Below are positions 16,743-53,187 of a stretch of DNA of 54,313 nt, in pieces. Location: assembly GCA_014730165.1 (NCBI GenBank), contig WJIS01000079.1, forward strand, positions 1 to 54,313. Direction: 5' to 3'. The first letter of the stretch is position 1. Every line of letters begins with the position of its first letter. The position numbers and the translations under genes are program-made. This DNA comes from Promethearchaeota archaeon. GTDB taxonomy: Archaea; Asgardarchaeota; Lokiarchaeia; Sigyniarchaeales; SOKP01. Under the pieces are notes generated by a model. The model saw nothing but the letters and a program-made list of their open reading frames with translations. It was not told where the DNA came from and made no database searches.

Positions 16743-18402
16743 CGATAAATTCGTGTGCGATACTTCAGTAATATTTAACGGTCAGATTTTAACATTAATC
16801 GAAGATGGAGAATTAGGTGATACACCTGAAATCTATGTCCCTAATGTTGTAATTGCAGAGGTGGAATACAGATCAAACATTCAGAAGGAAATAGGTTTTT
16901 TTGGGATTAATGTTATGAAAACTTTACGAGAATTAGATAGTGATGGGGAAATTCATTTAAAGATAACTGGAAAAAGGCCTTCGAAGGACGAAATCAAATT
17001 GGCACCCGGAGGAGAATTAGATGCGAAAATTCGAGAAGAAGCAAAAAACATTAATGCGGTTCTCATTACAGCAGACCGAATTCAAGGAGATATAGGTATC
17101 TTTGAAGGTCTTGAGGTTTTTTATGTTAAAGATAAAGTTACTAAAAAACCTACAGAACCCCTTACTCTTAGATTACTGGATTTTTTTGACCCTGATACAA
17201 TGAGTGTTCATCTCAAGCGAAATATCCCACCTTATGCTAAAAAAGGCGGTCCAGGGAGTTGGAGATTAGAAAAAATATCCAATGATATTATTAGTAATAA
17301 ACTAATTGAACAAATTGCCTTAGAAATTGTAGAGTATGTAAGGGAAGATGAGCATTCATTCATAGAAATTGAGAAAACGGGGGCATTGGTTGCTCAAATG
17401 CGTGAATTTAGAATTGTTATAACTCGGCCTCCATTTTCAAATGATGTCGAGATCACCGCAGTAAGACCTCTTGTGAACCTTGAATTAAACGATTATTCAA
17501 TCAATAATAGATTACAGAGGAGACTAGATAAAGCTGAAGGAATACTCGTTTGTGGAGCCCCCGGTGCGGGAAAATCCACATTTTCTGCTGCTTTAGCTAA
17601 TTATTATTTAGAAAATGAAAAAGTTGTAAAGACACTTGAAAGTGTCAGAGATTTACAAGTTAAACCCGAAATTACGCAATATACCAAATTAGATGGTAGT
17701 TTAGAAAATTCAGCCGATATTTTGCTGCTAGTAAGACCCGATTTCACCATATTTGATGAAGTTCGTACAACGGCAGATTTCAAGATTTATACAGATTTTA
17801 GATTGTCTGGAGTAGGAATGATTGGTGTGGTTCATAGTTCGTCTGCTATTGATGCGGTTCAACGATTTATCGGAAGAGTTGAACTTGGAATGCTTCCTTC
17901 CATAATTGATACAATCATCTTTATTAAGGGAGGAGATATTGAAAATGTGTTGGTAGTTAGAATGACAGTCAAAGTTCCATCTGGGTTTAAGGATAAGGAT
18001 CTAGCTCGTCCTGTAATAGAGGTGAGAGATTATGAGACCAGAAGATTAGCATTTGAAATTTATTCTTTCGGTCAAGATATTGTATTAAATCCTATCAATC
18101 CAATTAGAAGGAAAGATGGATTTGATGATTTTGAAAAGTATTCTCCGTTTGAAAGTCATAATAGAAGAAGTAGCGGAGATGAGTTTCATATAGATATTAA
18201 TATTAAAGGAGACAGGATGATAATTACTGCCCCAGATCGATATTCATCCCAAAATATACAGATATTATCAGAGCATAAATTAATATTTACTGGTGCGTTG
18301 AGTAGAAGTGGAGATATAACACTCTCATTGTCACAAAGGGAAGGAAAGAAAATATTGAGAGAAATGGAAAAACATAAAAGAATTTATGGAAAAGTAAAAT
18401 AG
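16732..18402 (+). CDS. PIN-domain ATPase (PINA / PINc-VapC ATPase)
   Basis: N-terminal PIN (VCDTSV...AEVE...DAKI...TAD), TMSVHLK, Walker A GAPGAGKST, RPDFTIFDEVR, GVGMIGVVH, DLARPVIEV; overlaps the endA stop. Confidence 0.92.
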   Translation: MSVNDKFVCDTSVIFNGQILTLIEDGELGDTPEIYVPNVVIAEVEYRSNIQKEIGFFGINVMKTLRELDSDGEIHLKITGKRPSKDEIKLAPGGELDAKIREEAKNINAVLITADRIQGDIGIFEGLEVFYVKDKVTKKPTEPLTLRLLDFFDPDTMSVHLKRNIPPYAKKGGPGSWRLEKISNDIISNKLIEQIALEIVEYVREDEHSFIEIEKTGALVAQMREFRIVITRPPFSNDVEITAVRPLVNLELNDYSINNRLQRRLDKAEGILVCGAPGAGKSTFSAALANYYLENEKVVKTLESVRDLQVKPEITQYTKLDGSLENSADILLLVRPDFTIFDEVRTTADFKIYTDFRLSGVGMIGVVHSSSAIDAVQRFIGRVELGMLPSIIDTIIFIKGGDIENVLVVRMTVKVPSGFKDKDLARPVIEVRDYETRRLAFEIYSFGQDIVLNPINPIRRKDGFDDFEKYSPFESHNRRSSGDEFHIDINIKGDRMIITAPDRYSSQNIQILSEHKLIFTGALSRSGDITLSLSQREGKKILREMEKHKRIYGKVK

Positions 18403-49825: not shown

Positions 49826-51364
49826 TTAGGAGGAAAATACTTGGGAAATATCACGATATAGAACATCTTTGTTTGCTTGAAATTCTTCTTGAGTAATAAA
49901 TAGATTTCTAAATGAGGGTAGACTTCCTAATATCGCAGCACCGTTAAAAATAGCATGAAGTAGATTATTAGGTACAAAAAATTTGATAATTTTTCTAGAT
50001 TTATCAGTGGAATCTTCAAACTCACTCGCAACACTAGGGATGGTGGGCGTGCTTTTTGGGGGAGGTGCACTCTCAAGCTTTTTATCTTCCAAATTAAAAC
50101 CACAATAAGGGCAAAAGGCAGAGTCTTTATCTTTAATTTCCTTATTACATAAGGGACATTTAATTACTCCTTTAGCAGTATCAGGATTTTGCGAGTCAAT
50201 GTCTAAAGATATCTGAGGTAAATTAAGATCAGCATCACATTGAGGACATGTTGTTTTCCCATCAGATAAATCAACTAATGTTCCACATTTCGGACAGTTA
50301 TCTTTATCCTTTTTAGCTGCGGTCATAACAGGTTTCAATTGATTTGCTTCATTTTTATTAAACTCATCTTCATGGGGCTTAGGAATTTCTCCTAATTGAG
50401 GTAATAATCGATCAAGTTCAAATTTAAGTCGTTCTTCGAAACCACTATGCATTAAGTTTCCTCCAGAAAGCACTATATGGGAGAGTAGATCTCCCCAATA
50501 ATCCCGATCTATACTTTGTAGACAAGAAATAACCGCATTTGCTACATTTTGAGAATTTGAACCGATCATAGTAGGTTCAAATAAAACTTCAGGAGCTTCA
50601 TAGAGGATGTGATGAGGTATTTCCACGGTTGAACCATCCGGCATTGGATATGAGATGTTATCTCGTTGAATTTCTGGAGGATTATCTGGATCTAATACAA
50701 AATAGCAATTCTTTTCCTTCAATTCCTTGATTATTTCATCTGACGCTGATGATGATAGACTTATTCCCTCTCTCATCATTAATGATTTCAGATTATGACT
50801 TATATCCATACCAGCTAAATTTAATCTTTGAACAGATTTATATATTATTTGGCCATTAATAATTGGGACAATCCATGTTGTTCCATCTCCACTCTCTATG
50901 ATCAATCCAGTTGTGAGCCCAACAGAAAAACAAGAGAGGATTGGAGAAGGGACCATTATAATACTCTTAACTTGATGTGTTTCATACAAAACTCGTGCTA
51001 CAAATTCTTTAATCTCGTTAGAGACAAAAGGAGCTTCTACATATAATATGGGATAATTCTCAAAACTTTCTATTCTTAGGAGATTATAGAAAATATGATT
51101 TAAGATTTGGTAAAACTCATCCCAATCCATTATATTTCCACGTTGGATAGGATGTGATACTTTTAATACTCCTCTCATACGCATAGCATCTTCTCCTACA
51201 TACACATTTCGTGCATCCACATCTACCATAACAGAAGTGTATTTTTCAGTTCCAGTAATACATGGAAAAATATATCTTGGTTCAGATTCTCCAGCAAAAC
51301 CAACTTTCACATACGCTGAACCGAGATCGATTATAATTGGTGTTCCAGAGGGAGGTAATGACAT
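49826..51364 (-). CDS. Actin-family protein with internal double zinc-ribbon insertion
   Basis: IIDLGSAYVKVGFAG..P..IFP, YVGEDA, PIQRG..MDWD, IESGDG...VPI, LAG.D, LKEK.CY, MPDG, APEVLFEP, IVLSGG...GFEERL, GAAILGSL..F....IT.EEF. Confidence 0.95.
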   Translation of the reverse strand: MSLPPSGTPIIIDLGSAYVKVGFAGESEPRYIFPCITGTEKYTSVMVDVDARNVYVGEDAMRMRGVLKVSHPIQRGNIMDWDEFYQILNHIFYNLLRIESFENYPILYVEAPFVSNEIKEFVARVLYETHQVKSIIMVPSPILSCFSVGLTTGLIIESGDGTTWIVPIINGQIIYKSVQRLNLAGMDISHNLKSLMMREGISLSSSASDEIIKELKEKNCYFVLDPDNPPEIQRDNISYPMPDGSTVEIPHHILYEAPEVLFEPTMIGSNSQNVANAVISCLQSIDRDYWGDLLSHIVLSGGNLMHSGFEERLKFELDRLLPQLGEIPKPHEDEFNKNEANQLKPVMTAAKKDKDNCPKCGTLVDLSDGKTTCPQCDADLNLPQISLDIDSQNPDTAKGVIKCPLCNKEIKDKDSAFCPYCGFNLEDKKLESAPPPKSTPTIPSVASEFEDSTDKSRKIIKFFVPNNLLHAIFNGAAILGSLPSFRNLFITQEEFQANKDVLYRDISQVFSS

Positions 51365-51560
51365 TTAAATTCAATATTTAACAAGTTATTTTTTAAAAAT
51401 ATATTAAACTATGATTATCACAATAATTTAATTTTAACCTTTTAATTTTTTCTTTTCAAGAGTTAAGGTTTGATTTAAATATGTGTTATAATCTAAATTG
51501 ATAAGTATTCTATATGACATAGACTAAGCATAAAAAACTGATCATTAGAAATAATAAAAA

Positions 51561-52111
51561 GTATATAATAAAATGGGTTATCAACCTCTATAATTCCTTT
51601 TTCATGACTCATTGTGAATAAATCACAAGATTTTTTCCCCTGGATGAGGAGGAAACATTAGTTTTAAAGTTTCCCACCTATGACAAGAGCCACCTTTCTG
51701 TGATATAAAGTTTTTCATATGGAAATGACCTACTTATGTAAAACCTTTTCATTTCTATTATAGAGGACTTTAAATAATCCATTTTAAAATATACCTTGAA
51801 AACTCTTTTTCTTACTTTTCAGAAAAAAGGTTTACACAAATAGATCAAGTGTAGGAGTGTGCCTTTTAAAGGTTTATATCGCTAAATATTTTCTATCCTA
51901 TTTATATAAGTAAAACAAGATAGGTGAATGTTGTTTAACCAGTTTATAAAAATATATGTTCTTTTTTTTGTTACACTTTTGTAAAATCAATTATGTTGAT
52001 CACCCCAATCAAACTATGTTCGAAAAAAAATGAGAGAAACTTCTTTTGAATGAGGAGAATGATTTCGAAGTCTGGGGATCGGAATTTTGAATAGTTTTAA
52101 AAGAATGTATA
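51561..52111 (+). ncRNA. Candidate large structured non-coding RNA (unidentified family)
   Basis: No long ORF. Nested stems 51594-605/51644-54, 51612-17/51623-28, 51675-81/51920-26, 51700-09/51873-82, 51729-33/51851-55, 51737-49/51825-36, 51953-65/52099-111, 52003-07/52073-77, 52019-25/52063-69, with G-U pairs on the + strand. Confidence 0.6.
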
Positions 52112-52256
52112 AATTTAAGAGAATTTACAATTTTTGATATTAGTTTGAATTATTATAAGTCTGAAAGAATTCATATTAATTTAATAATAGTTGAAAAGTA
52201 TGGAACCTATAGTTAAAATATAGTATAATTTTCACTATTATCAAATATATATTGCT

Positions 52257-52694
52257 TTAAATATCAGAGAGATATTCCATTAATTTCTTTAGTATATCCT
52301 TTTCAAGTACTAAACCAATTAATTTATTATCAGTATCTACAATAGGTAAACGCTCAATATTATTATCAAACATTAGATTTAATATTTTTTTGATTGTATC
52401 ACCTCTTCTCGCAACATACGGTTCCGGTGTCATTAAATCTTTTACTAACGTATTAGGTGATTCTAAAGACATCGCAAATCTTGCTAATCTAATATCTCTT
52501 TGAGTAATAATGCCTAAAAGTTTCATCTTCTCCTTAGAATCAACCACAGGCAACCCTCCGATGTTTTTTCTTAGCATTAACAGTTCCGTTGTACTTATTT
52601 TTTCATTTGGAGTTATAAATAAAGGGTCTTCTATCATTAATTCGGAAACTTTAATTTTACCAAATGAATCTAATGTTGGTTCCTTTTGTGTCAT
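52257..52694 (-). CDS. CBS-domain pair protein
   Basis: KVSELM, IGGLPVVD...LLGIITQRDI, VKDLMT, IERLPIVD...LIGLV...DI. Confidence 0.92.
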   Translation of the reverse strand: MTQKEPTLDSFGKIKVSELMIEDPLFITPNEKISTTELLMLRKNIGGLPVVDSKEKMKLLGIITQRDIRLARFAMSLESPNTLVKDLMTPEPYVARRGDTIKKILNLMFDNNIERLPIVDTDNKLIGLVLEKDILKKLMEYLSDI

Positions 52695-52779
52695 TATTAA
52701 ATCTAATGTCGTTTATTCTTAAATTGACATCTCTAATAACTTAATAAAATGAATAATTTAATTTTGAATTAAAAGATAA

Positions 52780-53187
52780 TTAATTGGATTTATTCAATAT
52801 ATTTTTTATTCGGATTCGCATTTCTTCCACCTCTGAAGAAGCTGTTTGATAATATTGAAGTAAATATTCCCCCCAATCATTTAATTTTATCCATCCCCCT
52901 CCACCACTTCCTCCTTTGCTCGTTATCACTGCGGCCTTCCCCGTACGCTTCTCGATACGTTTTAAAATATTCCAAGCATATTTATAAGAATAACCACATT
53001 GTTTTGCGGCTTTAGTTAACGATCCTTTTTCACTTTCATTATTTCTAATATATTCCAGAAGTTTTGCCCACCCCTGTCCTAAAATATTTTTCCCGTCAAA
53101 CTCGAGCCAAATCTTTATTCCAAAATCAACATTCGGTTTTAATTCATCTAATCTAACAGAAGCAACTTTAGTAGATTCTTCCTCCAT
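52780..53187 (-). CDS. ModE-like winged-helix regulator (N-terminal domain only)
   Basis: KIWLE...LGQG..KLL...GSLTKAAKQCGYSYKYAW...GGSGGG...L...G. Confidence 0.88.
   Translation of the reverse strand: MEEESTKVASVRLDELKPNVDFGIKIWLEFDGKNILGQGWAKLLEYIRNNESEKGSLTKAAKQCGYSYKYAWNILKRIEKRTGKAAVITSKGGSGGGGWIKLNDWGEYLLQYYQTASSEVEEMRIRIKNILNKSN

Follow-up and report, generated by a model that had tools for sequence, protein, structure and literature searches.

Inverted repeats like the one analyzed here have their closest described counterparts in truncated gene duplicates and pseudogene fragments, in MITEs and foldback elements, in the young MIRNA genes of plants, in hok-type toxin mRNAs, and in IS200/IS605-type TnpB elements. 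Young MIRNA genes of plants are reportedly born according to an inverted-duplication model; hok-type type I toxin mRNAs are inhibited by folding back on themselves. Our repeat lies in a window of 54,313 nt (the whole stretch of DNA that was analyzed; contig WJIS01000079.1, forward strand) from a Promethearchaeota archaeon. It is like a truncated duplicate or pseudogene fragment in that it belongs to a relic that runs colinearly with two intact paralogs through their upstream region, promoter motif, and first codons, that has lost its reading frame, and that relatives lack at this site. It departs from the typical truncated duplicate in that a short, inverted second start segment turns the relic into a long palindrome capable of forming a hairpin, and in that hardly any of the relic promoter motif has been lost. 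With MITEs and foldback elements the segment has its small size and terminal inverted repeats in common; unlike these, it is single-copy, lacks a target-site duplication, and has one “terminus” inside a longer block of homology.

We consider it probable, from the comparisons that follow, that the inverted repeat is the scar of a lineage-specific rearrangement built from the relic of a gene start, with no designed RNA element. The spacer in which it lies holds extra DNA, the spacer shares homology with two paralog loci, the 3′ arm of the repeat sits on the ATG of the relic, and the intact paralogs lack the pairing. On this reading, the repeat is an ordinary genomic scar. Such scars mislead; a striking hairpin can be the debris of gene duplication.

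The repeat region is the spacer between two minus-strand genes, an actin homolog downstream and a CBS-domain protein upstream (Table 1); an HTH gene and a gene of the metallo-beta-lactamase fold follow beyond the CBS gene. Actin orthologs with 56-65% identity were found in 31/31 related genomes searched and at a further 60 metagenome loci. Among 84 related loci examined that contain the actin N terminus, the upstream neighbor is the CBS gene in 43 and the HTH gene lies closest in 19, while 22 show neither within the flank. The CBS-actin spacer measures about 892-893 nt here, whereas it spans 68-227 nt wherever a related locus has retained the CBS neighbor (43/43), so that ∼750 nt of it is lineage-specific; the spacing is 98-316 nt in the 19 loci with the HTH gene nearest. 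On a relative's contig from run X3, actin and CBS are joined by 661 letters vs. 1415 in the window, which corresponds by arithmetic to a spacer of ∼138 nt. The actin homolog carries its double zinc ribbons C-terminally, and the usual gene order in the family-level group is actin, CBS, HTH, metallo-beta-lactamase fold.

Arms and stems are absent from all 84 homologous loci examined, and a search of the spacer against 40 related genomes returned short AT-rich matches only. In the metagenome scan no actin relative exceeded 64% full-length identity (71% for a fragment), and therefore no alignable spacer was found. A tblastx search of the spacer against its own genome gave nothing below E 0.07. Rfam 15 (positions 50800-52800, E ≤10) returned three matches at E 4.9-9, with 18.8-19.9 bits against gathering scores of 40-70, and ARAGORN found no tRNA or tmRNA in the window. 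As for a replication origin, there is no Orc1/Cdc6 gene among the five flanking genes scanned, and relatives are without the segment.

Table 1. Features of the CBS-actin spacer and its flanking genes (positions in the window)
Feature	Position	Strand	Basis
Actin homolog, 512 aa, with zinc-ribbon-bearing C-terminal part	49826-51364	-	Pfam Actin E 8.5e-70, DZR E 1.3e-6
T5 run, directly after the closing helix	51556-51560	-	sequence
5′ arm of the inverted repeat	51561-51594		sequence, alignment scores
Interior, 162 nt, somewhat higher G+C than the flanks, local hairpins on both strands	51595-51756		folds
TTTAT, junction to the TnpB insertion-sequence end in the X1 contig	51618-51622	-	X1 loose end before 51618
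Relic open frame, 34 aa, from the relic ATG (51782-51780), no zinc ribbon	51678-51782	-	ORF list
Relic, third copy of upstream region, 5′ leader, and first codons	51757-52130	-	relaxed blastn, three-way alignment
3′ arm, start-codon segment of the relic, about -12/-15 to +26 of the ATG	51757-51794	-	colinear with paralogs
T6 run, between inferred relic start site and hairpin domain	51823-51828	-	sequence
ATCTA(T/C)TT box, conserved, near the transcript start inferred from block C	51838-51845	-	alignment
Block C, family promoter motif: TATA-like TTAAAA, 5 nt, AACTCCTAC	51851-51869	-	18/19 positions
Block B, conserved upstream block	51975-52003	-	C52 24/24 specified positions; C384 looser
Block A, conserved upstream block (GATCCCCAGAC)	52070-52080	-	three-way alignment
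CBS-domain protein, 145 aa	52257-52694	-	Pfam CBS E 5.4e-29

In a relaxed blastn search of the own genome (G000), window positions 51758-52130 matched contig C52 at 17460-17826 with 79.7 bits, compared with a maximum of 62.5 bits in 20 shuffles; this is the sole spacer match in the genome above the shuffle range. A second, colinear match is found at C384:2834-3093. Each match immediately precedes one of two paralogous genes (414 and 435 aa, 69% identical) and reaches its first codons. The three-way alignment reveals blocks A, B, and C, a small box, an aligned ATG, and about nine codons as features common to all copies. The first ∼9 codons of the 34-aa frame that opens at this ATG align with the paralog starts and nothing further on does; tblastn gave no match at E ≤1e-3 in the window contig. 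The best local match of the paralogs near the relic (E 0.099) is not colinear, so that the interior of the repeat holds no colinear paralog coding remnant; nor does this interior have another copy in the genome. Colinear homology to two paralog loci, a promoter motif at the expected distance, and loss of coding sequence together identify the segment as a gene relic.

Block C carries the family promoter motif. It starts at -87 from the relic ATG vs. -82 and -81 in the paralogs, and with at most one mismatch the genome contains it just three times, namely in C52, in C384, and in the window. A G>T change at 51859 restores the consensus in strains X1 and X3, where the match is 19/19. The arrangement TTAAAA-N5-AACTCCTAC is present 48-73 nt upstream of the ATG in 7/21 family genes from G000 and its relatives, vs. 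∼0.07 genes expected (by arithmetic) from its genome frequency; the background of the 7-mer CTCCTAC is 0.0034 per 100 nt. Archaeal TATA boxes are centered ∼26 nt upstream of the transcript start. This distance, applied to block C, would place the start site of the relic near the conserved ATCTA(T/C)TT box. That sequence is conserved between TATA box and start site points to autoregulation or to a regulator of its own, and the promoter as a whole hints at a dedicated regulator of the TFB-like family.

Blocks B and A lie ∼200 and ∼290 nt upstream of the TFB-like genes (C52:17670 and 17765; C384:2928). They are kept in all three copies of the own genome, but a look at the corresponding regions of the relatives did not reveal them. 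Conserved structure was not detected in the shared upstream module: two consensus folds of the three copies, each spanning ∼260 columns, reach -5.4 and -10.0 kcal/mol, and their covariation terms are +1.2 and -1.4.

The parent family comprises zinc-ribbon proteins of ∼415-440 aa with a patchy, often multicopy distribution (13/31 genomes, all from one family-level group). The paralogs in the own genome are G000:C52:16240-17484 (L119:841-2085, minus) and G000:C384:3143-4450 (L120:944-2251, plus), and related loci were collected as L124-L144. We describe the parent gene as weakly TFB-like, based on profile and structure-based matches. The protein matches NCBIfam TFIIB at E 5.4e-5 (22.4 bits against a cut-off of 384), the TFIIB cores PDB 1d3u_B and 1ais_B at E 0.02, and the Pfam TFIIB zinc ribbon at E 0.02-0.07, which is below the cut-off; no Pfam family matches it at E ≤0.01. 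For a viral or mobile origin of the TFB-like gene, the searches returned no relative in viral contigs and no PHROG match.

The repeat itself had been noticed in a sequence-only reading of the window, which described 51561-51594 as an imperfect inverted copy of 51757-51794, and it is present as described: blocks of 6 bp, 13 bp (one G/T), and a perfect 10 bp, split by internal loops of 2×2 and 3×7, with 162 nt between the arms. An inverted-repeat search of 801 nt, which yielded 87 inverted pairs, recovers the outer part of the repeat as pair I3 (51558-51581/51774-51797, 83% complementary). The 3′ arm is colinear with the start regions at C52:17484 and C384:3143, with the ATGs aligned. On the plus strand, the 5′ arm also resembles a gene start, with an ATG at 51573-51575, five codons, and a stop. 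Aligned as a fixed pair, the 5′ arm and the reverse-complemented 3′ arm score 42, which 0/500 shuffles reach; the 5′ arm against the C384 start scores 30 (17/500 shuffles). The arm-to-arm score thus compares with 24-30 for the arms against the paralogs, and the 10-nt word shared by the arms is missing in the paralogs. A 9-nt word is common to the 5′ arm and the C384 start region at a place where the 3′ arm has diverged.

From these similarities, we infer that a short piece of the relic start segment was duplicated in inverse orientation and gave the 5′ arm, which would then not be a chance match. An inverted duplicated promoter, which the sequence-only reading had offered as an alternative, comes close: the arms do look like inverted copies of a gene-start segment, but the promoter itself was not copied and lies ∼70-90 nt further upstream. 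We also considered whether the entire upstream region had been copied in inverse orientation to the left of the 5′ arm; on reading the sequence, no block-C-like stretch stands at the expected place. Within the interior, an exact 16-nt word (51682-51697) recurs at G000:C86:1551-1566, C86 being a small contig with a copy of a TnpB element. A longer match, to C86:1516-1703 (55 bits), was rejected; it falls within the shuffle range of ≤62.5 bits, its orientation is unfit for the adjoining TnpB element, and it is probably due to chance.

Pairing between the start region and downstream sequence reaches -12.9 and -12.3 kcal/mol in the two paralog mRNAs, and 33/60 and 41/60 shuffles attain these values. 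With the intact paralogs at shuffle level, the pairing is private to the relic and does not serve the gene family as a regulatory structure; a family-wide structure that sequesters the start codon was rejected, as both paralogs are without the pairing. As in the fold-back inhibition of hok, long-range pairing here would bury a start-codon region within one transcript. Unlike in hok, the 34-aa frame of the relic is not membrane-toxin-like, an antisense RNA gene is missing, and conservation of the feature is lacking.

In the rearrangement that we favor, a partial copy of a TFB-like zinc-ribbon gene would have been inserted between the CBS and actin genes. This copy would have brought along ∼370 nt from upstream of the gene, including the family promoter motif, as well as the 5′ leader and ∼9 initial codons, but nothing further of the gene. 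The 5′ arm would be a ∼40-nt inverted duplicate of the relic start segment, 162 nt off, which probably arose in the same rearrangement or soon after it; template switching and fold-back repair are examples of mechanisms that could have produced it. The hairpin would then have no function of its own. Signs of low constraint are the strain divergence of the spacer (1.3-4% differences between strain contigs and the window, vs. 0.7-1.5% in the flanking genes), a TnpB junction in strain X1 (see below), and the T6 run between the relic promoter and the hairpin.

Several observations count against a scar. Besides the nearly intact promoter motif, two upstream blocks are kept in the relic, and this retention is greater than under uniform decay to ∼60% identity (P ∼0.07 by a rough run-length estimate of our own). 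Of the two arms, the contigs assembled from runs X1 and X3 cover the 3′ one, and it is identical in both strains. Finally, the domain closed by the repeat is unusually stable. In folds of 51540-51860 on both strands, the long pairing forms the closing helix of a multibranch domain. The segment 51555-51800 (246 nt) folds at -66.9 kcal/mol on the minus strand (z -5.6) and at -55.0 kcal/mol on the plus strand (z -3.9), and 0/200 shuffles do as well on either; since the boundaries of this segment were placed on the arms, the z values are inflated.

A rival reading is a young hairpin RNA, in which block C drives a minus-strand transcript of ∼290 nt that is closed by the inverted repeat and ends at the T5 run. 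Its role would be that of a small RNA, or else of an insulator or structured leader upstream of the actin gene, which has the same orientation. A promoter motif matching at 18/19 positions, and at 19/19 in two strains, would serve it, as would the better fold on the minus than on the plus strand and the invariance of the 3′ arm in X1 and X3. Oligo-T runs terminate archaeal transcription. On the minus strand, 51561-51822 is free of runs of five or more T, with a T5 run right behind the helix and a further T6 run at 51532-51537; on the plus strand, four T5+ runs fall within the domain. A domain without such runs and bracketed by T6 and T5 fits a minus-strand transcript, and this too speaks against a scar. 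The T6 run at 51823-51828, however, separates the inferred start site from the hairpin and could act as an early terminator. The element is absent from relatives (the 40 genomes and 84 loci above), hence it shows neither conservation nor covariation, and Rfam has no match for it. One strain, moreover, seems to carry an insertion sequence within the domain. We regard a hairpin RNA as unlikely on this balance. The hairpin is of low interest unless its transcription is demonstrated; if a stranded family promoter together with a new hairpin were transcribed, it would offer a rare view of a structured RNA arising from coding DNA.

The insertion sequence was encountered in run X1, in which the contig covering 51618-52036 runs leftwards into 25 letters that form the end of a multicopy genome repeat. 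The exact 25-letter end occurs at six places in G000, with ATAAA following it in each (TTTAT on the other strand). A 760-nt query from the repeat end matches ∼50 G000 contigs, many of them at contig ends, and one repeat copy encodes a TnpB-like protein (TNB domain, E 2.8e-24). Because the loose end in X1 matches the end of a multicopy TnpB element, an interruption of the hairpin domain by a TnpB insertion sequence is suggested in this strain, by one contig of depth 4 with 25 loose letters. The element at this junction, and it only, resembles IS200/IS605-type TnpB elements (PMC8612924, PMC10055086) in being multicopy and in having a subterminal hairpin and a constant pentanucleotide; the inverted repeat shares no sequence with it. 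Copies of the insertion sequence, with a subterminal 5-bp hairpin, include C346:18200-20900 (L147), C309, C328:4200, and C33:403; the TnpB-like gene of L147 is broken into two frames, 301 and 105 aa long.

The arms might also match by chance, the 3′ arm being the gene-start relic and the 5′ arm unrelated AT-rich spacer DNA. Whether the pairing of the arms exceeds chance depends on the test, with different verdicts from alignment score and duplex energy. In our own inverted-repeat scan (9-mer seed, scores +2/-2/-3, spacing ≤350), the score of 42 is equaled or exceeded in 21.7% of 2000 dinucleotide shuffles of the spacer. Genome-wide, 527 repeats score at least 42, and block shuffling of the genome leaves 380. 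Of the 527, 450 fall within the 1.21 Mb that has a GC content <0.28; in the AT-rich DNA of this genome, one inverted repeat that aligns this well is thus met every ∼2.7 kb. These figures speak for chance, and the minus-strand duplex energies speak against it. On the minus strand, the arm pair is the best pair of 50-nt tiles in the spacer at -30.9 kcal/mol, a value that 0/53 shuffles attain (minimum -29.6), which at the same time is a point against a scar. Tiles of the plus strand miss the arm pair, and a duplex set by hand (-27.8 kcal/mol) is exceeded by 1/53 shuffles. With the start-codon segment as anchor, the best downstream partner has -31.6 kcal/mol vs. -15.8 ± 2.4 in shuffles (0/60, z ∼-6.6), in a test whose anchor was picked post hoc with the pairing already known. 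The 9-nt word shared by the 5′ arm and the C384 start where the 3′ arm differs also argues against chance, which we judge to be decidedly improbable as the source of the repeat.

Less probable still is that the locus is a hairpin-RNA gene at its birth, in which an inverted-duplicated TFB-like gene start behind the family promoter would give the ∼290-nt minus-strand RNA, with one arm antisense to the start of the family genes. This archaeon is not known to have small-RNA processing of the plant MIRNA kind. The parallel with plants, whose MIRNA gene birth is the topic of PMC3237417, is one of origin: under the inverted-duplication model, as would be the case here, the hairpin arms go back to a stretch of a protein-coding gene that was duplicated in inverse orientation, with intact paralogs of the gene at other places in the genome. 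Unlike in plants, the host is an archaeon, the transcript of the hairpin is hypothetical, and pairing of the antisense arm with the paralog mRNAs is not significant (67/300 and 25/300 shuffles equal it), a result that tells against any hairpin RNA and for which antisense action on the paralog mRNAs was rejected. If this account were true, the hairpin RNA could place the neighboring actin gene, or the paralogs, under the influence of the regulator that recognizes the AACTCCTAC motif.

We can give hardly any credence to a MITE-like or foldback mobile element of ∼234 nt, a second alternative of the sequence-only reading. The size is suitable and the imperfect inverted repeats of 34 and 38 nt could serve as its bounds, but the assembly (4.65 Mb, 392 contigs, 97.8% complete) holds no second copy. 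A 361-nt query matches ≤23 nt elsewhere (E 0.005) and the arms alone ≤16 nt, so that dispersed matches to 51757-51794 are wanting, and there is no match in the 40 related genomes. No direct repeat is seen in the flanks of the arms (51558/51561 and 51794/51797). Being single-copy and without a target-site duplication, the segment is not a MITE; nor is the 3′ arm the end of an element, since homology to the paralog loci continues for ∼340 nt beyond its outer edge.

The model put forward in the sequence-only reading, in which nested stems of a plus-strand RNA enclose a loop that pairs with a promoter-like segment further upstream, fares just as poorly: the complementarity exists and the plus strand can form it at the hand-set -27.8 kcal/mol, but the arm said to enclose it (51715-51855) folds at -19.9 kcal/mol vs. 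-18.3 ± 3.3 in shuffles (z -0.49; 60/200 as good) without the outer stem in its minimum-energy fold, the four T5+ runs inside the domain lie on the plus strand, the family promoter motif of the relic faces the minus strand, a 5′ arm used as TATA box would by archaeal promoter geometry lie mostly upstream of the transcript start and be unable to pair, and neither Rfam nor the 40 genomes and 84 loci contain a homolog. As the nested stems fold no better than shuffled sequence, the large pseudoknot formed by pairing across them is not supported, and the two-state switch and the guide-like loop acting on its own promoter are not supported either. What that reading observed was partly confirmed, and its interpretation found partial support.

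An in-frame TAA is present in three members of the TFB-like family (G000:C193:520-1422 and the G005 and G012 loci; L143, L141, L131), which may be further decaying copies. In the spacer itself, run X3 shows a 7-letter insertion behind 52129, where the spacer differences are densest (8 other letters in 198).
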